NCBI GenBank assembly: GCA_037444625.1
Contig: JBBIMA010000018.1
Span: forward strand, 1 to 64,000
Origin: Solibacteraceae bacterium
GTDB taxonomy: Bacteria > Acidobacteriota > Terriglobia > Bryobacterales > Bryobacteraceae
Reading direction: 5' to 3'
Length of the DNA stretch: 64,000 nucleotides
The position numbers and the translations under genes were made by a program. The notes below the pieces were generated by a model. It saw only the letters and a list, made by a program, of their open reading frames with translations, was not told the DNA's origin and searched no databases. Shown here in pieces: positions 8-59,913 of this stretch (the first letter of the stretch is position 1; each line of letters begins with the position of its first letter).

Positions 8-83
8 TGGTGGACGGCATGGGATTCGAACCCACGACCCCGGCGTTGCGAACGCCGTGCTCTCCCAGCTGAGCTAGCCGCCC
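8..83 (-). tRNA. tRNA-Ala (anticodon CGC)
   Basis: The reverse complement reads GGGCGGCTAGCTCAGCTGGGAGAGCACGGCGTTCGCAACGCCGGGGTCGTGGGTTCGAATCCCATGCCGTCCACCA. It has a cloverleaf with the Ala identity pair G3:U70, a TTCGCAA anticodon loop, T-loop GGTTCGAATCC and an encoded CCA. Confidence 0.9.
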
Positions 84-48753: not shown

Positions 48754-48976
48754 AACCCTCCTTCTCGATTCTCCCGATTGAACCGTTGCGGCGGCGGGCC
48801 CGGGGGCGAAAGCCGCCGGCGACGACTTCAAATCGCTTTTCATGATAAGGAAAGTCGGGCGCGAAGTAAAGAGAAAAGTTGCACGAAACGCCCGATTTTC
48901 GGGCCTGCGGAAGCAGGCCGGCGCCCGGCAGGGCCGAAAACGCGCCCTCGGAACCACCCGGCCCGGCCGGGCCCGT

Positions 48977-50014
48977 TCAGCAGGCGGCCGCCCGGGCCTG
49001 CTCGGCCGGCGGCGCCAGGCCCAGCAGCCGCCGCAGTTCCTCCTCCAGGCGCTCGCGCACCTCCCGGTGCTCCTTGAGAAACTGGCGGGCGTTTTCCCGC
49101 CCCTGGCCGATCCGCTCGCCGCGGTAGCTCAGCCAGGAGCCGCTCTTCTCGATCAGGTCGCGGCTCAGCCCGAGATCCAGCAGGTCGGCTTCCCGCGAGA
49201 TCCCCTGGCCGTGGATCAGGTCGAACTCCGCTTCGCGGAAGGGCGCCGCCACCTTGTTCTTGACCACCCGGACCCGGGTCCGGCTGCCCACCACCCCGTC
49301 GTTCTCCTTCAGGCTGGCGGTGCGCCGCACATCCACCCGCACCGAGGCGTAGAACTTCAAGGCTCGCCCCCCGGTGGTGGTTTCCGGATTGCCGAACATC
49401 ACGCCGATCTTCTCCCGGATCTGGTTGATGAAAATCAGGCAGGTGTTAGTGCGCGAGACCGCTCCGGCCAGCTTGCGCAGCGCCTGGGACATCAGGCGCG
49501 CCTGGAGACCCACAAAGCTCTCGCCCATCTCTCCCTCCAGCTCGGCCTTGGGCACCAGGGCCGCCACCGAATCAATCACGATTACGTCCAGAGCGCCGGA
49601 GGCCACCAGGGCGCCGGTGATCTCCAGCGCCTGCTCGCCGTAATCGGGCTGGGAAACCAGCAGATTGTCGGTGTCCACCCCCAGGCTCCGGGCATAGACC
49701 GGATCCAGGGCGTGTTCGGCGTCAATGAAGGCGGCGGTGCCCCCCGCCTTCTGCGCCTCGGCGATCACCTGGAGCGCGATCGTGGTCTTGCCGGAAGCTT
49801 CCGGGCCGAAGATCTCCACGATCCGCCCCCGGGGAAAGCCTCCCACCCCCAGCGCGGCGTCCAGCGAAAGGGAGCCGCTGGAGATCACCGAGACCGGCAG
49901 GATGCTGTCGGAGCCCAGCCGCAGGACGGACCCCTTGCCGAACTGCTTTTCCATCTGGCTGAGCACCTGGTCAACGGCGCGCCGGCGTTCGTCGCCGGAC
50001 GAGTTCCTGGACAT
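48977..50014 (-). CDS. recA: recombinase RecA (downstream paralogue)
   Basis: Walker [11 protein letters not shown]1/L2 loops ([19 protein letters not shown]), complete C-terminal domain. Confidence 0.95.
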
Positions 50015-50079
50015 AGAGCGCCCTCCGGAGCACTCTATTTGGTGGGTTCCGGCGGCGGTTGATCTCAGCCCAAAGCGAC

Positions 50080-51153
50080 TCAGCGGCCGCGCGCGGCCGC
50101 AGCCGGAGCGGGCTTGGCGGGCGGCTCGGGCGCCGGGGCGGGGCTCTCGGCGGGAGCGCGCACCAGCCCGAGGGCGCGGCGCAGCTCGGCTTCCAGCCGG
50201 TCGGCCACCTCGGGGTTGTCGCGCAGGAATTGCCGGGCGTTCTCGCGCCCCTGTCCGATGCGCTCGCCTTTGTAGCTGTACCAGGAGCCGCTCTTCTCAA
50301 CCAGGTTGTGCGCCACGCCCAAGTCAATCAGGTCTCCCTCGCGCGAGATGCCCTGCCCGTAGAGGATGTCGAACTCGGCTTCGCGGAAGGGCGCCGCCAG
50401 CTTGTTCTTCACGATTTTGACCTTGGTGCGGCTGCCCACCACGGTTTCGCCCTCCTTGATGGCCGCCACGCGCCGGATGTCGGCCCGGACGCTGGCGTAG
50501 AACTTCAGGGCGCGTCCGCCGGTGGTGGTCTCCGGGTTGCCGAACATCACGCCGATCTTCTCCCGGATCTGGTTGATGAAGATCAGACAGGTGTTGGACT
50601 TCGACACGATGCCGGTGAGCTTGCGCAAGGCCTGCGACATCAGCCGGGCCTGCACGCCCACGTAGGCCTCGCCCATCTCCCCGTCCAGTTCCGCTTTGGG
50701 CACCAGGGCGGCCACCGAGTCAATCACCAGCACGTCAATCGAACCGGAGCTGATCAGGGCGCTGGTGATCTCCAGGGCCTGCTCGGCGTAATCCGGCTGG
50801 GAGACCAGCAGATTGTCGGTATCCACGCCGAGCTGGCGGGCGTAAATCGGATCCAGGGCGTGCTCGACGTCAATGAAGGCCGCCATCCCTCCCGCCTTCT
50901 GGGCGCTGGCCACCACGTGCAGGGCGATGGTGGTCTTGCCGGAGGCCTCCGGGCCGAAGATCTCGCTGATGCGGCCGCGGGGGAAGCCGCCGATGCCCAG
51001 GGCGGCGTCCAGGGAGATCGAACCGGTGGGGATGGTGGCCACCGGCACGATCGCCTCGCGCGAACCCAGCCGCAGGATCGAACCCTTGCCGAACTGTTTC
51101 TCGATCTGGCTCAGGGTGAGGCCCAGGGCGCGTGCGCGTTCCTTGTCGTCCAT
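50080..51153 (-). CDS. recA: recombinase RecA (upstream paralogue)
   Basis: Same motifs. About 80% aa identity to the downstream copy, with long near-identical DNA stretches. Confidence 0.95.
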
Positions 51154-51231
51154 AGGGGATCCTTTCCGCGGCCGGCGGGGCCGGCGACAAGTCAGATTAT
51201 ACCCCTTCGCAGGGCCCGGCCCGAAGGCGCC

Positions 51232-52188
51232 CTACAGGCGCGGAGCGTAATAGCCCTTGCGCGCCCTCACCACCAGATCCCGCCGCCCCTTGACTCTGAC
51301 GTCCACGGCCTGGTAGCGCCCGTCGGTGCGCAGCGGCTCGGGCCGGTAAAAGATGTTGTACTGGTGGCGCAGCTCGTTGGCGATGTTTTCAAACGACTGG
51401 GCCAGGTCTTCGATCTTGAAGGGGAATAGAGCCAGGCCGCCGGTCTCCGCCGCCATGTACTTCAGCACCCTGTCGCCGTCGGTCTCCAGCCGGGTGACGT
51501 TGGTCGAGATCGTGTAGACGACGGCGTCGGCCTTTTGGGCCATCTCGAGCGCCTGATCGCGCGTCACCCGGCTCTGGTTGTCCTCCCCGTCGCTCAAGAC
51601 CACCACCGCCCGGCGAAACTTGTGCCGGGGCTGTTCCTGCATGAGCTTGTCGCGACAGGCGAAGTAGATGGCCTCGTACAGGGAGGTACCCCCGCCGGGA
51701 CGCAGCTCGCGGATGGCGGCCGCCAGCCTTTCCGGATCCTCCGTCAGGTCGGCGACCAGCTCGACCGAAGTGTCGAAGCTGACCACCAGGGCCTTGTCGT
51801 AACGCGGGCGCATCACGCTGTTGAGAAACTCGATGGCCGCCTCCTGGATGAAGCGGAAGCGCGGCCGGACGCTGTTGCTGGTGTCCAACAGCAGCGCGAT
51901 GCGCAAAGGCAGGTCGCTCTCGGCGGCGAACTCCAGGATCTTCTGGGGACGCTTGTCCTCGATGACCTCGAAATCGTCCCGCCCCAGGTTGGTGATGAAG
52001 CGGCCCTTGCGGTCGGTGACCGTAAACAGCAGATTGACCCGGGTCACGTCCAGGATGATGCGGGTCTTCTCGTCGTCGAGCTGGAGCGCTTCTCCTCCGG
52101 GCTTCGGGCGTTGAGTCCGGACGCCGGGCTGCTGCACCCCGGCGGCCAGTGCGCTCAGCAGGCCCGCACAGGCCAGCCACCCCTTCAT
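51232..52188 (-). CDS. secreted von Willebrand factor A (VWA) domain protein
   Basis: Signal peptide; MIDAS motif DTSNS with downstream T and D residues. Confidence 0.75.
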   Translation of the reverse strand: MKGWLACAGLLSALAAGVQQPGVRTQRPKPGGEALQLDDEKTRIILDVTRVNLLFTVTDRKGRFITNLGRDDFEVIEDKRPQKILEFAAESDLPLRIALLLDTSNSVRPRFRFIQEAAIEFLNSVMRPRYDKALVVSFDTSVELVADLTEDPERLAAAIRELRPGGGTSLYEAIYFACRDKLMQEQPRHKFRRAVVVLSDGEDNQSRVTRDQALEMAQKADAVVYTISTNVTRLETDGDRVLKYMAAETGGLALFPFKIEDLAQSFENIANELRHQYNIFYRPEPLRTDGRYQAVDVRVKGRRDLVVRARKGYYAPRL

Positions 52189-52218: not shown

Positions 52219-53562
52219 TCAGCGCAGGTTGTACTTCTTCATCTTGTAGCGCAGGGTGTCGCGCGTGATGCGCAGCAGCCGCGCCGCCTGGGTTTGGTTG
52301 CCGTTGGTCTTCTCCAGAGCCCGCAGCAGCAGTTGCCGCTCGCTCTCGGCCAGCGAGAGGCCCTCCTCCGGGATGTCCGGAGCCGCCTGGGCCCAAGCCG
52401 CCGAGCGCAGCTCCTCCCTGCCCAGCGAGATGGGCAGGCTGGCCGGCGTGATGCGCGAGGATTCCTCCAGGATCATCGCCCGCTCGATGGCGTTGCGCAG
52501 CTCCCGGACGTTGCCCGGCCAGTCATGCTGCAACAGCAGCCGCTCGGCTTCCGGCGCCACTCCCTCGATATGCCGTTTGAACTTCCGGTTGTAGTGCTCG
52601 ATGAAGAACTCCGCCAGCGGCAGGATGTCTTCCTTGCGCTCGCGCAGGGGCGGAATCAGAATCTGGATCACGTTCAGGCGGAAGTACAGGTCCTGGCGGA
52701 AGGCCCCTTCCCGCACCGCCTCCCGCAGGTTCTTGTTGGTGGCGGCGATGAAGCGCACGTCCACCCGGATGTCCTTCAGCCCGCCCAGCCGGCGGAAACT
52801 CTGCTCCTCGAGCACGCGCAGCAGCTTGGCCTGAAGGGTGAGCGGAATCTCCCCGATCTCGTCCAGAAACAGCGTGCCTCGATCGGCCAGCTCGAACAGG
52901 CCGCGCTTCTGCGCCCGGGCGTCGGTGAAAGCGCCCTTCTCGTAGCCGAACAGTTCGCTTTCCAGCAGCGTCTCCGGAATGGCCGCGCAGTTGATCGCGA
53001 TGAACGGCTCGGCCTGCCGCGGGCTCTCGTAATGCAGCGTCTTGGCGATCAGGTCCTTGCCCGTGCCGTTCTCGCCCTCCAGCAGAATGGTGGCCGCTTC
53101 GCTGGCCGCCACCTTGCGCACGAAGCTGATCACCTCGCGCATGGCGGCCGATTCGGCCACCACCTCCCGCTTGATGGGCGCCACTTCCTCGGTCACGTCC
53201 TTGACGGCCGCCAGGGCGCCCGCCGTCTGCCCGGCCTCATCCGTCAGCGGGGCGGTCCGCACCAGCACCAGCCGCTCGGATCCCTCCTCGGTGCGCAGCC
53301 GGACGGTGCCGTGCAGCGAGGCGCCCGGCTGCTGGAATCCCTCCAGCAATCCGCAGCCGCTCTCGCAGCCCTTGCAGCGAAAGACCTCCCGGCAACTGCG
53401 CCCCACCATCTGCGAGGCCTCCAGCCCGAACAACCGCTCCGCCGCCCGGTTCACGCCGCAGATCACCAGGTCGCGATCGTAGAGGATCAGGGCTTCGGAG
53501 AGTTGATCGAAAACCGCTTCCAGCAGGCCGGGGCGCTGCCACTGTGGGAGTAGTTTCGACAT
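52219..53562 (-). CDS. sigma-54-dependent transcriptional activator (PAS + AAA+ + Fis HTH, no receiver)
   Basis: GAFTDA, ESELFGYEKGAF and a C-terminal HTH. The N-terminal PAS domain carries four Cys (CREVFRCKGCESGC). Confidence 0.85.
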   Translation of the reverse strand: MSKLLPQWQRPGLLEAVFDQLSEALILYDRDLVICGVNRAAERLFGLEASQMVGRSCREVFRCKGCESGCGLLEGFQQPGASLHGTVRLRTEEGSERLVLVRTAPLTDEAGQTAGALAAVKDVTEEVAPIKREVVAESAAMREVISFVRKVAASEAATILLEGENGTGKDLIAKTLHYESPRQAEPFIAINCAAIPETLLESELFGYEKGAFTDARAQKRGLFELADRGTLFLDEIGEIPLTLQAKLLRVLEEQSFRRLGGLKDIRVDVRFIAATNKNLREAVREGAFRQDLYFRLNVIQILIPPLRERKEDILPLAEFFIEHYNRKFKRHIEGVAPEAERLLLQHDWPGNVRELRNAIERAMILEESSRITPASLPISLGREELRSAAWAQAAPDIPEEGLSLAESERQLLLRALEKTNGNQTQAARLLRITRDTLRYKMKKYNLR

Positions 53563-53633
53563 GCGGCGGGGTTACCTTTCATTATACGCCAGGCTGGGTG
53601 ATTTCACCCACCCCGCCGCCCTTCACACCGGGC

Positions 53634-54980
53634 TCACTTGCCCACGCAGAACCGCGCGAAAATCCGCTCGAGCACGTCCTCGGCCGTGGCCGCACCGGTG
53701 ATCCCCCCGATCGCCTCCAGCGCGCCGTAGAGATCCAGCAGCAGCAGCTCATGCGGCAGCGCGGAAACGCCCTGCCAGGCCTTTTCCAGCCGCCCCCGCG
53801 CCTCCTCAAGCAGGCTCTGGTGGCGCACGCTGGTGATGAAGCCCGGCTGAATCTCGCCCGCCTCGGGCGCCGCCGCCTCCAAAATTCGCCGGCGCAGATT
53901 CTCCAGGCCCTCCCCGGTCAGGGCGGAGACCACGACGTGGGGTTCGGCCAGCTCGGCCCGCCGCGGCAAGTCGCACTTGTTGCCCACCAGAAGAAACCGC
54001 CCCTGAGTGCGAGCCCGCTCGATCAGGGCCAAGTCCTCCGCCTCGACGGGCGCCGACAGATCCACCACCACCAAGGTCAAGTCCGCGTCCGCCATCGCCT
54101 GGAAGGTCCGCTGGACGCCCAGGCTCTCCACCAGGTCGCCGGAGGCGCGCACCCCGGCCGTGTCCGTGAACTTGATGGGGATGCCCTCCAGGCAGGCCAG
54201 CTCGGAAACCAGATCCCGCGTGGTGCCCGGAATCTCGGTGACGATCGCGCGCTCCCGCTCCAGCAGCCGGTTGAACAGGCTGCTCTTGCCCACGTTAGGC
54301 CGGCCGACGATGGCCAGCGCCAGACCCTCGTGCACCAGCTTGCCGTAAGCGTAGCTGGCGGCCAATTCGGAAACCTCCTTCAGCAGCGGTCCGAGCAGGC
54401 GGGCGATCTCCTCGGGGCCGGCCACCGGCACGTCGTCCTCGGCGAAGTCAATGCCCGCCTCCAGCAGCGCGATCAGCTCGAGCAGCTTCTCCCGGATGGG
54501 CGCCAGCCGGCGCGAGACCGACCCTTCGGCCTGCTGGGCGGCGATGCGGGCCTGGTACAGCGTGGTCGCTTCGATCAGGTCGCGCACCGCCTCAGCCTGC
54601 GGCAGGTCAATGCGGCCGTGCACGAAGGCGCGCAGCGTGAATTCTCCCGGCCCCGCCGGCCGGGCTCCCAAAGCCACCGCCCGGGCGACGCAGTAGCGCA
54701 GCACCACCGGCGAGCCGTGGCAGGAGATCTCGACCAGATCCTCGGCGGTGTAGGAGTGCGGGCGGGCGAAAAAGCTGACCAGCACCCGGTCCACCGCCTG
54801 CCCTTCCGGATCGGGCAGCTCGGCCAGCCGCATTCTCCACGGCCGCCACTCCGGCGGCTTGGGAAAGCGCAAGAGGCGCTCGGCGATCTGGCGCGCCCGC
54901 TCGCCCGAGATCCGCACGATACCCAGGCCGCCGCGCCCCGGCGGGGTCGAAACGGCCACGATGGTGTCGCCGAGATCCAT
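53634..54980 (-). CDS. mnmE: tRNA modification GTPase MnmE
   Basis: G-domain motifs GRPNVGKSS and DTAG; C-terminal CVGK. Confidence 0.95.
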
Positions 54981-54998
54981 GGCGGGCGCCGCGCCCGC

Positions 54999-55571
54999 TC
55001 AGGGCGCGCCTTCACCGCCGGGCGAGCGGAACCGGCAGCCCTGCGCCGCATCCCCCGCCCTGAGATGAGCCGGCGGGGAAGGATACACCACCACGTGCCG
55101 GCCCGGACCCAGACCCTGGCTCTGGCTGTACACGCCGGCTTGGTCGCGCAACGCCAGGTGAATGATGCGCCGCTCGCGGCTGCTCATCGGGCTGAAGGGG
55201 AAGGGCCGGCCGGTCCGCCGCACGCGCTCGGCCGCGGCCGCCGCGCTCAAACGCAGCTCCTCGATGCGCAGCAGGCGGTAGTCGTTGGCGTCCAAGCAAA
55301 TCCGCTCGTGATCCTCGGAGGGAATCCGGAGCATCTGAATCGCCAGATGCTCCAGGGCCAGCAGCAGCTCGGCCTTGTTTTCCAGCAGCAGATCCGCGTC
55401 CGGCCCCGAGAACTTGACCACGATCTCCGGGCTCTCCCAATCCCTGTCCTGGACGGCGCCCTCGGCGATCTCGAAGCGCAGCCGAAGGCGGGCCCGTTCG
55501 AGAATCGGACGCAGAAAACGCTCCAGGCGCGGGCGCAAGGCCCCCAGGGTATACTTGCGCTTCCGATTCAC
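54999..55571 (-). CDS. jag: RNA-binding protein Jag/KhpB (KH + R3H)
   Basis: GTG start overlapping the yidC stop (GTGA). R3H motif IHLALRD. The upstream part of the listed ORF overlaps yidC and is not coding. Confidence 0.8.
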   Translation of the reverse strand: MNRKRKYTLGALRPRLERFLRPILERARLRLRFEIAEGAVQDRDWESPEIVVKFSGPDADLLLENKAELLLALEHLAIQMLRIPSEDHERICLDANDYRLLRIEELRLSAAAAAERVRRTGRPFPFSPMSSRERRIIHLALRDQAGVYSQSQGLGPGRHVVVYPSPPAHLRAGDAAQGCRFRSPGGEGAP

Positions 55572-57256
55572 CGTCCGGCCTTTTTCCTCCTGCGGGATTC
55601 CGCCCCGCCCGGCGCAGCCTTGGCCATGGCGGGCGCGGGCAGAACGGCGGGCGCGGGCATGGTCTTGTTGATCAACACCTGCTGGGCGATGCCCACCAGA
55701 TTGCTGGTCAGCCAGTACAGCACCAGGCCGCTCGAAAAATGGTAGAACATGAAGCCGAACACCAGGGGCATCAGCAGCATCATGCGCTGCTGCATCGGAT
55801 CGGCCGTGGTGGCGGGCGTCATCTTTTGCATGGCGAACTGCGAGACGATCATGGCCACCGGCAAGATTCGAATGGGCAACTGCTCGGGCTGGGATAGATC
55901 CGTCACCCACAGCCAGCTCGCCCCGCGCAGCTCGATGGCCACCGTCAACACATTGTAAAAGCCGATGAAAAAGGGAATCTGGAGCAGCATCGGGATGCAG
56001 CCCCCCATCGGGTTGACCCCGTGCTTCTTGTACAGCTCCATGAGCTCCTGGTTCTGCTGCTGCTTGCGCGGATCACGCAGGCTGATGCCCTTGTACTTCT
56101 CGTTGATGGCCGCGATCTGGGGCTGAAGGGCCTGCATCTTCTTCATGGACTTCAGGCTGGAGAACTTCAGCGGCAGCAAGGCGAAGTTGATGAACACCGT
56201 CACCAGCACGATGGCCCAGCCGTAGTTGCCCACGACATTGTGGTGCACCCACTTCAGGATCAGGAACAGGGGCTTGGCGATGAAGCCGAACCAGGTGCCG
56301 AAGTCCACCACCTGCTCCAGCCGGCGGTCCACCTGCCGGAGCACGTCCAGATCCTTGGGCCCCACGAAAACCGCAAACTCGTTGCGCGCCGCCCCGCCCA
56401 CGCCGACCCCCACGTGCGGCACCTCCTTGGCCTCCCGCGGGGAAGGCACCGCATCGCTCAGGGTTTGGATTTCCACGCTCCGGCCGGCGGGCGGCAGGAA
56501 CACGGCCGCGAAGTAGCCGTCCTGGATGCCCGCGAACAAGAACGGCCCGGAGGCGCTCACAGGACCGTTCTTGGCGGCTTTGGCCTCCTCGGTGATCAGC
56601 TTGCCGGCGGCCGGATCGAAATGCAGCGTCCGCTGTCGGGCCGCCGGATTGTCCACCGCCGGATCGCCGAAGCCTCCCCGCCATTGGACCAGATGGGGCA
56701 GCGGGCCCGAGCCGTCCCGGGCTTCCGAGATAAAGCGCCACAGGTAACGGGCCTTCTCGAAGCGGAAAGACTTGCGCACCCAGAGGCGCCCGTCGGAAAA
56801 CTCGTAGTCCACGCCCAAACCGTCGGCGGCCGGACGGGCTGCGAACAGGGCCTGGTTGACCTCCAGGGCAGGCTGGCGGTCCTTGAAGGACAGCGCGAAC
56901 GGATAGCCGGTCTTTGCGGCGGCCGCCGTGTTGACCAATTGCAAGGCCTTGCCCGAGGCGTCCTTGTATTTCTTCAGCTCCCAAGCCAGCACGACCGCGC
57001 CCCGGTTCGACAGCCGGATGCGGTACAGATCGGTCTCGATGGTCTGTTGTTCCGGTTTGGCCGCCGAAATCGGTGGGGTGAGTTTGGCCTCAGGCGCGGC
57101 GGGCGGGGCGGGCGGCGGAGTCTCGGCCGGCTGGGCCGCCGGAGCGGGCGCTTTCGCCGGGGCGGGCGGCGGCCCGTACATCTTGTGGTAGGCGTAGGGG
57201 GCCAGGAACATCACTACGCCGGTCAGCAAGAAGGCCAGCAGGAGCCGCCATTCCAT
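55568..57256 (-). CDS. yidC: membrane protein insertase YidC
   Basis: Start MEWRLLLAFLLTG, a periplasmic domain, five C-terminal TM helices, K-rich tail. Confidence 0.95.
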   Translation of the reverse strand: MEWRLLLAFLLTGVVMFLAPYAYHKMYGPPPAPAKAPAPAAQPAETPPPAPPAAPEAKLTPPISAAKPEQQTIETDLYRIRLSNRGAVVLAWELKKYKDASGKALQLVNTAAAAKTGYPFALSFKDRQPALEVNQALFAARPAADGLGVDYEFSDGRLWVRKSFRFEKARYLWRFISEARDGSGPLPHLVQWRGGFGDPAVDNPAARQRTLHFDPAAGKLITEEAKAAKNGPVSASGPFLFAGIQDGYFAAVFLPPAGRSVEIQTLSDAVPSPREAKEVPHVGVGVGGAARNEFAVFVGPKDLDVLRQVDRRLEQVVDFGTWFGFIAKPLFLILKWVHHNVVGNYGWAIVLVTVFINFALLPLKFSSLKSMKKMQALQPQIAAINEKYKGISLRDPRKQQQNQELMELYKKHGVNPMGGCIPMLLQIPFFIGFYNVLTVAIELRGASWLWVTDLSQPEQLPIRILPVAMIVSQFAMQKMTPATTADPMQQRMMLLMPLVFGFMFYHFSSGLVLYWLTSNLVGIAQQVLINKTMPAPAVLPAPAMAKAAPGGAESRRRKKAGR

Positions 57257-57334
57257 GCGAGGCTCCTCCGGCCCGATCTTGCCCGTCCTGTCCTGCCGGC
57301 CGCCGCCTTCCGCCATCAGCGTCTCCCGGGCGCC

Positions 57335-59824: not shown

Positions 59825-59913
59825 GGAGGAATGGCCGAGCGGTCGAAGGCGGCGGTCTTGAAAACCGCTAGGGCCGAAAGGCCCTCGGGGGTTCGAATCC
59901 CTCTTCCTCCGCC
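59825..59913 (+). tRNA. tRNA-Ser (anticodon UGA), class II
   Basis: GGAGGAATGGCCGAGCGGTCGAAGGC..CTTGAAA..TAGGGCCGAAAGGCCCTC..GGTTCGAATCC. Long variable arm, discriminator G, encoded CC. Confidence 0.85.

Follow-up and report, generated by a model that had tools for sequence, protein, structure and literature searches.

A conserved tandem pair of diverged recA genes in Bryobacteraceae-like Acidobacteriota, probably an old paralog pair under separate regulation

Two full-length recA genes in tandem

RecA is a textbook single-copy gene, and only a handful of bacteria have had retained, diverged copies of it investigated (PMC7029660). Here, we describe two adjacent recA genes on a metagenome-assembled contig of a Solibacteraceae bacterium (NCBI GenBank assembly GCA_037444625.1, contig JBBIMA010000018.1), within a stretch of 64,000 nucleotides (positions 1 to 64,000 of the forward strand) that we refer to as the window. 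The genes are co-oriented, separated by a spacer of 65 nucleotides (nt), and named here after the two clades of RecA to which they belong:

50080-51153, minus strand: recA type A, the upstream copy, an open reading frame of 357 amino acids (aa) that matches TIGR02012 with 541.0 bits and falls in clade A
48977-50014, minus strand: recA type B, the downstream copy, an open reading frame of 345 aa that matches TIGR02012 with 540.5 bits and falls in clade B

Both scores lie above the cutoff of the TIGR02012 RecA equivalog model (325.3 bits), and in the profile search both copies cover model positions 1 to 320 of 321 and are full-length RecA. Database proteins identical to the window copies carry the Pfam domains RecA_N and RecA_C (PF00154 and PF21096). 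The two proteins share 78% identity and 92% positives over 309 aa (BLASTP), or 76.8% identity over 341 aligned codons. The original prediction, made from the bare sequence, had described two intact same-strand genes of these lengths at roughly 80% protein identity, with Walker A/B motifs and DNA-binding loops L1 and L2 retained, with differing C-terminal tails and with no recX following. Our analysis bears out these points: the open reading frames and the end-to-end TIGR02012 matches agree, the tails were quoted correctly for both copies, and the gene that follows type B is of the HU family, in a 64-kb window that holds no recX.

The residues known to matter for RecA function were surveyed in 119 type A and 116 type B sequences, using E. 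coli residue numbering verified against PDB 2rec_A. The P-loop residues K72 and T73, the catalytic E96, the Walker B residue D144 and the allosteric Q194 are invariant in both clades and in the window copies, as are, across both clades, the L1 and L2 residues R169, R196, K198, F203, G204, G211 and G212. The second DNA-binding site (site II; R226, R227, R243, K245) is basic in both clades, with K/R exchanges only. The residues of the subunit interface and trans-ATPase site (K6/R28, K216, F217, R222, K248, K250) and of the extended interface (E123, E154, S172, R176) are invariant or show conservative K/R exchange in both clades. Every functional residue checked is intact in both window copies, and each is predicted to encode a complete RecA with its catalytic, DNA-binding and interface residues in place. 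An inactivating substitution, which would have counted against two intact genes, was found in neither on alignment.

The nearest named relatives of the two proteins are metagenome-assembled genomes of Bryobacteraceae and Bryobacterales; no cultured isolate is identifiable among the named database matches. By position, type A is the ortholog of the single recA found in close relatives.

An old divergence between the copies

Across the codon alignment the two genes are 75.9% identical at the nucleotide level, with 82%, 88% and 57.5% identity at codon positions 1, 2 and 3, respectively, the last value being low in spite of a G+C content at third codon positions (GC3) of about 0.90 in both genes. 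We estimate about 0.74 synonymous substitutions per synonymous site (Ks), about 0.18 nonsynonymous substitutions per nonsynonymous site (Ka) and a Ka/Ks of about 0.24. Synonymous sites are near saturation, and a recent duplication is therefore unsupported. Long stretches of DNA had been described as nearly identical between the copies; we find only two identical runs of at least 20 nt, measuring 44 nt and 22 nt. The 44-nt run slightly exceeds the cross-genome maximum for A-B comparisons (38 nt), which is the one observation that speaks for recent duplication or conversion, but it codes for the invariant L2 loop in a genome with a GC3 of about 0.90. Among the seven genomes with both genes, A-B nucleotide identity ranges from 0.69 to 0.76 within a genome and from 0.67 to 0.77 across genomes, and the longest shared runs are alike within and across genomes. 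There is no sign of concerted evolution in these seven genomes: A and B from one genome resemble each other no more closely than A and B from different genomes. Together with the separate, well-supported clades and congruent trees described below, these values refute the recent tandem duplication or continuing gene conversion that was first proposed, and we assign it a negligible probability.

An assembly artefact, whether a repeat expanded in error or two strains joined into a chimera, is likewise excluded, with practically no probability left to it. The window does derive from a metagenome, and some short database contigs do show artefactual internal RecA repeats. However, 24% of nucleotides differ between the copies, and separate orthologs exist for each of them. 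The gene order recurs in many independent assemblies and was assembled independently in JGI, ENA and NCBI sets, with contigs of 0.2 to 1.6 Mb among them. The database entries with internally repeated RecA segments, P0012 (445 aa) and P0123 (459 aa), look like products of assembly or gene calling.

Two clades inherited together

We placed 332 RecA sequences in a neighbour-joining tree (100 bootstraps). All upstream copies fall in clade A (133 sequences, bootstrap 85) and all downstream copies in clade B (124 sequences, bootstrap 91). Clades A and B pair with each other (bootstrap 68, with four stragglers), and the sister group of this pair is the RecA of Terriglobales (bootstrap 76); deltaproteobacterial RecA branches far outside them. 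This position next to Terriglobales rules out an import of type B from a distant phylum or a phage.

The histories of A and B also run in parallel. For nine genomes that carry the pair, 4 of 7 splits are common to the tree of A and the tree of B, compared with 0.2 expected by chance (P=0.0005), and the two distance matrices are correlated (Mantel r=0.69, p=0.003). The pair has been co-inherited since the ancestor of lineages whose type A proteins are now only about 80 to 85% identical.

A conserved locus that has lost its second recA at least twice

The pair is framed by two conserved genes:

51232-52188, minus strand: acidobacterial VWA-domain gene upstream of type A, matching TIGR03436 (acidobact_VWFA) with 222 bits
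48448-48753, minus strand: HU/IHF-family gene (101 aa) downstream of type B, with its own TTTACT-N17-TATCAT promoter at 48842-48870

The VWA gene lies 5' of type A in every related locus examined, and a gene of 94 to 101 aa with the Bac_DNA_binding domain lies 3' of type B in related loci. The order VWA-recA(A)-recA(B)-HU-TatA recurs in at least 10 independent Bryobacteraceae-like assemblies, two of them with genes between the copies. Loci with this order include L081 (JGI 3300031463), L082 (GCA_900174565.1), L084, L085, L086, L093 (GCA_964363615.1), L094, L095 and L096, of which L094 and L095 represent a very common Bryobacteraceae lineage present in 63 index blocks. A gene of the TraB/PrgY/GumN family is inserted between A and B in L092 (6094-7062), and in L176 (2722-4945) the insertion comprises a gene of this family and an unknown gene of 388 aa. 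At least 18 further A+B pairs are suggested by size-matched contigs that occur in both match lists. Among the matches listed, a scattered sample that leaves aside the nearest relatives, a second recA-like gene was present at 1 of 80 genome loci and 3 of 80 metagenome loci, and among those listed loci only L096 is a true A-B pair. A different kind of tandem occurs in other Acidobacteriia/Terriglobia, in which a much more divergent recA-like open reading frame directly follows recA (L006:6165-6821, L097:4967-5722, L123:5215-5934) with 41 to 47% identity over about 230 to 270 aa.

Some close relatives carry no type B at the locus. Five loci (L087-L091) read VWA-recA(A)-HU-TatA-DUF4432, with the HU-family gene directly 3' of a type A that is 93 to 94% identical to that of the window, and a sixth (L083) reads VWA-recA(A)-purH. 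Both of these single-copy lineages nest among pair-carrying lineages in the tree, and type B has therefore been lost at least twice. The single-copy genes are pure type A over their whole length, tail included, and the idea that they are chimeras of A and B is thereby rejected. No deletion scar and no remnant of type B or of the spacer was found in these relatives, the best spacer match being no better than that of shuffled sequence. The losses are clean deletions, and type B is therefore dispensable in some settings.

Neither recX nor lexA was found within the 64-kb window, and the recA-recX operon arrangement does not occur there, the pair being followed by the HU-family gene. We also saw no recX in the flanks of the pair-carrying loci examined. 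In the single-copy loci L087 (3214-3750), L088, L089 and L090 (3206-3745), recX lies about 2 kb 5' of VWA-recA, and single-copy relatives have a different neighbourhood upstream of the VWA gene. In the window, the region 5' of the VWA gene (52219-57316, minus strand) holds, by synteny with L084 and L085, a PAS/sigma-54 activator, mnmE, jag (R3H) and yidC, a cluster found near the replication origin in many bacteria. The HU-family gene has, besides its conserved promoter, a long 5' leader that is itself strongly conserved and closes with GGTTCAATCGGGAGAATCGAGAAGGAGG. This leader and promoter region (window 48754-48870, minus strand; equivalent region in L081-L095) is common to tandem and single-copy loci.

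Distinct signals upstream of each gene

The noncoding DNA around the pair contains four conserved or otherwise informative elements:

51196-51201, minus strand: perfect TATAAT, resembling a -10 box, 42 nt 5' of the type A start codon
50015-50079, minus strand: A-B spacer of 65 nt with the type B motif and the Shine-Dalgarno sequence GGAGGG
50040-50067, minus strand: "B-box" TGAGA-N18-CACCA, about 25 nt 5' of the type B start, a candidate type B promoter or operator
48882-48904, minus strand: conserved element 3' of type B, consisting of the hairpin GCCCGAAAATCGGGC (48890-48904) followed by GTTTCGTG

Upstream of type A, the TATAAT is found at the same place in all 10 aligned loci and in L176, with no other conserved element nearby. 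A simple promoter scan does not call it, the -35 region being weak.

Type B is preceded by an unrelated signal. Across loci the B-box follows the consensus TGAGA-N18-CAC(C/T)(A/T), an invariant bipartite motif with fixed spacing. Its exact site occurs once only in the window and once per tandem locus, always in the spacer. TGAGA-N18-CAC precedes type B in all 9 of the linked loci, and it is present at 5 of 6 nonlinked type-B-like loci, compared with only 1 of 146 other recA upstream regions and a background of about 0.0013 per 130 nt. Where genes have been inserted between A and B (L092 and L176), the motif stands after them, just 5' of type B, and it also precedes type-B-like recA genes at the unrelated loci L019, L026, L029, L150 and L162. 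The motif has no dyad symmetry. Compared by eye, it fits the spacing or sequence of no sigma-70, sigma-54, sigma-32, extracytoplasmic function sigma factor or mycobacterial RecA-NDp promoter. We infer that the B-box is a non-sigma-70 promoter or an activator site.

A search for LexA boxes upstream of each copy, which had been suggested as a check, returned no match to 12 known LexA or damage-response motifs at up to 1 to 2 mismatches; the LexA motif of this lineage may be a different one. The pattern GTTC-N7-GTTC, known as the LexA box type of Alphaproteobacteria and Acidobacterium, has its only exact occurrence near recA inside the type A coding sequence (51080-51094, minus strand), and with one mismatch it recurs at the corresponding place inside type B (49929-49943). 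As a LexA box the type A site is probably a chance match, since its codons specify the conserved QFGKGS motif and the window holds about as many matches to the pattern as expected (35 versus 33.7).

The window spacer shows no intrinsic terminator signature, and the spacers of relatives, 47 to 80 nt long, are likewise without T-runs. The element at 48882-48904 lies 3' of type B in tandem loci and directly 3' of type A in single-copy loci, in each case just before the HU promoter. Its hairpin fails the T-run rule of the terminator scan; from its conserved placement, the element is likely the end of the recA transcription unit. Another predicted hairpin, of 11 bp (50013-50038), would pair the ribosome-binding site and start codon of type B with the sequence just 5' of them. 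It was given no weight, as its conservation extends only to L084, the closest relative, and as it does not stand out from shuffled controls (z=-1.05). In the recA region Rfam gave nothing, two sub-threshold matches sitting on the terminator after the HU-family gene, and the only matches above the gathering threshold in the window are two tRNA genes (11-83, minus strand; 59825-59911, plus strand).

What separates the two proteins

Eleven positions are diagnostic between clades A and B. Type A has fixed A95V, beside the catalytic E96, and G122A, both at sites that are invariant in all outgroups. When polarised by outgroups, type B has fixed K184R, S185T and I225V, with the sites of K184 and S185 invariant in outgroups. 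In addition, 81 of 116 clade B members carry Y264H; the histidine is present in 7 of 8 tandem type B copies versus 1 of 7 type-B-like genes that do not stand beside type A. Y264 lies at the ATP-adenine contact and is the 8-azido-ATP crosslink site of E. coli RecA; mutations at this position reportedly lower ATP hydrolysis and strand exchange more than LexA inactivation. Four further positions, K23, D224, K245 and N304, vary in clade B and are invariant in clade A. Mutations of K23 in E. coli are among those that specifically impair LexA cleavage, and mutations of N304 among those that abolish recombination and not LexA cleavage (PMC3164682). The window type B keeps K23, D224 and N304 and carries R245 and H264. 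Taken as a set, the clade B residues (Y264H, K245R, variable K23 and N304) suggest altered ATPase and strand-exchange behaviour or altered partner interaction.

Calculated isoelectric points (pI) are 8.5 for type A, 6.9 for type B and 5.1 for E. coli RecA, and neither copy has the acidic C-terminal tail of the E. coli protein. The tail of type A is rich in proline and alanine with a conserved end, AAAR[GS]R, and that of type B is short and variable. The type A terminus (window 50083-50112, minus strand) keeps the pattern P-A-x-A-A-(A)-R-[GS/A]-R across divergent genomes, single-copy ones included. Such a conserved end could be an interaction peptide.

The copies also differ in tempo. For the same genome pairs, type B changes its amino acids 1.2 to 3.3 times faster than type A (KaB/KaA), and the mean B/A ratio of protein distances is 2.1. 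Purifying selection acts strongly on A and B alike, with a Ka/Ks between the window and L081 of about 0.06 for A and about 0.11 for B. In 7 of 7 genomes type A has a lower effective number of codons and a higher GC3 than type B, a bias consistent with higher expression of type A.

A probable main and accessory RecA

The evidence taken together makes it probable that A and B are an old, vertically inherited paralog pair of a large Bryobacteraceae-like group, both functional and separately regulated, with A as the main and B as an accessory RecA. Sub-functionalisation of the copies, raised from the start, is a legitimate question: their upstream signals are different, as are their codon bias, their rate of evolution, their tails and a few residues at functional sites. 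The distinct conserved upstream motifs argue for regulatory divergence, and functional divergence probably accompanies it.

Type A would be the main housekeeping recombinase because a conserved consensus -10 box precedes it, its codon bias is the stronger of the two, it evolves more slowly and its functional sites do not vary. Type B would be a RecA that can be controlled separately. It may be read through from the type A promoter, because the 65-nt spacer holds no terminator, and the simplest transcription model combines an A-B unit that starts at the TATAAT promoter with an internal signal that serves type B only. TGAGA-N18-CAC would be that signal, staying with the gene even away from type A, and it most likely drives condition-specific expression of type B through a non-sigma-70 factor or regulator. 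With no difference between them at the interface residues, A and B could assemble into mixed as well as separate filaments. Altered properties of type B would amount to a division of function like the one that experiments established for RecA1 and RecA2 of Myxococcus.

Several points weigh against this reading, which is drawn from sequence. The monophyly of A+B has only moderate support, from neighbour-joining alone, and the match lists from which the distribution was drawn are weighted to the nearest 120 relatives of each copy. The B-box matches no sigma-factor or LexA consensus tried, so that its promoter role is putative. The window type B retains K23 and N304, and a loss of function is not readable from its sequence; the functional meaning given to Y264H is tentative. 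Finally, type B is dispensable in some lineages (L083, L087-L091).

The main rival treats type B as a xenolog, originally the native recA in a sister lineage within Bryobacterales, anciently transferred with its promoter to a site beside type A and inherited vertically ever since. Type-B-like recA genes with a B-box do occur elsewhere, at unrelated loci where no type A is adjacent (L019, L026, L029, L150), and tend to branch early in clade B; the unrelated upstream signals of A and B and the moderate support for A+B monophyly fit such a transfer too. Even so, type B occupies precisely the interval from type A to the hairpin by which type A is terminated in single-copy relatives, no clade is closer to A or to B than the other of the two, and the pair co-diverges across nine genomes, so that we consider a transferred origin unlikely.

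A bolder version of the paralog reading, which we rate as rather improbable, is a two-recombinase system, in which constitutive type A would be joined by a B-box-induced type B that co-polymerises with it and tunes its filaments. A specific stress, for example desiccation, starvation or oxidative damage, would induce type B by way of an alternative sigma factor or of a regulator other than LexA. Type B would alter ATP turnover via H264, tuning recombination or partly replacing regulation by RecX or LexA. If true, this would be a bacterial counterpart of the division of labour between Rad51 and Dmc1, together with a new class of damage-response promoter.

Plain redundancy, with both genes doing the same job and kept for more RecA, is disfavoured and seems to us quite improbable. 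It would suit two complete proteins with identical catalytic, DNA-binding and interface residues, encoded by co-oriented genes with no terminator between them, the second of which can be lost. It does not suit the roughly twofold rate asymmetry, the different conserved upstream signals, the consistent difference in codon bias or the diagnostic changes fixed at outgroup-invariant sites (A95V and G122A in A; K184R and S185T in B), and duplicates of this sort are not normally retained at a Ks of about 0.7 or more with a Ka/Ks of about 0.1.

For the paralog pair that we favour, several consequences follow. It adds an independent, family-wide example of recA duplication in Acidobacteria, an abundant but poorly studied soil phylum, and it has useful properties in the adjacency of its genes and in the natural type B "knock-outs" among close relatives. 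The motif specific to type B offers a direct handle on a damage or stress response that is possibly independent of LexA. Moreover, recA is widely used as a single-copy marker for phylogeny and genome quality; a conserved pair would therefore be miscounted as contamination, and it could confuse marker trees for this group.

Relation to other recA duplicates

The closest studied parallel is Myxococcus xanthus, whose recA1 (MXAN_1441) and recA2 (MXAN_1388) are unlinked, have different promoters and are neither of them in an operon; in vitro, strand exchange and LexA cleavage are confined to RecA1, and only recA2 has a LexA box (PMC7029660). As in Myxococcus, two full-length recA genes are kept across the acidobacterial lineage, with conserved ATPase core, L1 and L2 and with divergence mainly at the N and C termini. 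Both pairs are less acidic than E. coli RecA (pI 7.0 and 6.5 in Myxococcus versus 8.5 and 6.9 for acidobacterial A and B). The promoters differ between the two Myxococcus genes, and the distinct conserved upstream motifs of A and B argue for a similar difference in the acidobacterial pair. Unlike the Myxococcus genes, the acidobacterial ones are adjacent, co-oriented and probably co-transcribable, and their proteins are 77% rather than 64.6% identical. No LexA box was found at the acidobacterial pair with the 12 known motifs, in contrast to Myxococcus recA2, and the split of activities has been demonstrated by experiment in Myxococcus, whereas the acidobacterial pair is known from sequence. 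The acidobacterial duplication is independent of that in Myxococcus, because A and B are sisters within Acidobacteria, and the resemblance is one of analogy and not of shared ancestry.

Other cases are more remote. In Bacillus megaterium, according to the summary in PMC7029660 of work by Nahrstedt et al. 2005, recA1 and recA2 are both damage inducible and support DNA repair. As far as that summary goes, the likeness lies in two intact recA genes in one genome, and the duplication in this Firmicute is an independent event. Acaryochloris marina likewise retains multiple recA copies, its many paralogs complementing an E. coli recA deletion and having diverged in expression, with some of the duplications ancient (PMC11086944). 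Its copies are numerous, several of them plasmid-borne and strain-specific in an expanding genome, whereas the acidobacterial genes form one stable, chromosomal, syntenic tandem pair. Rad51 and Dmc1 offer an analogy only: they too are two related strand-exchange proteins with conserved cores that can share a DNA substrate, but their duplication is not homologous to this one and their meiotic context and accessory factors are wholly different. Mixed filaments of A and B are a possibility suggested by the conserved interface residues.

In the literature searched we found no report of a recA pair in Acidobacteria. Compared with the known cases, what sets this pair apart is the tandem arrangement of the two genes, its synteny across a family-level group and the specific motif upstream of type B.

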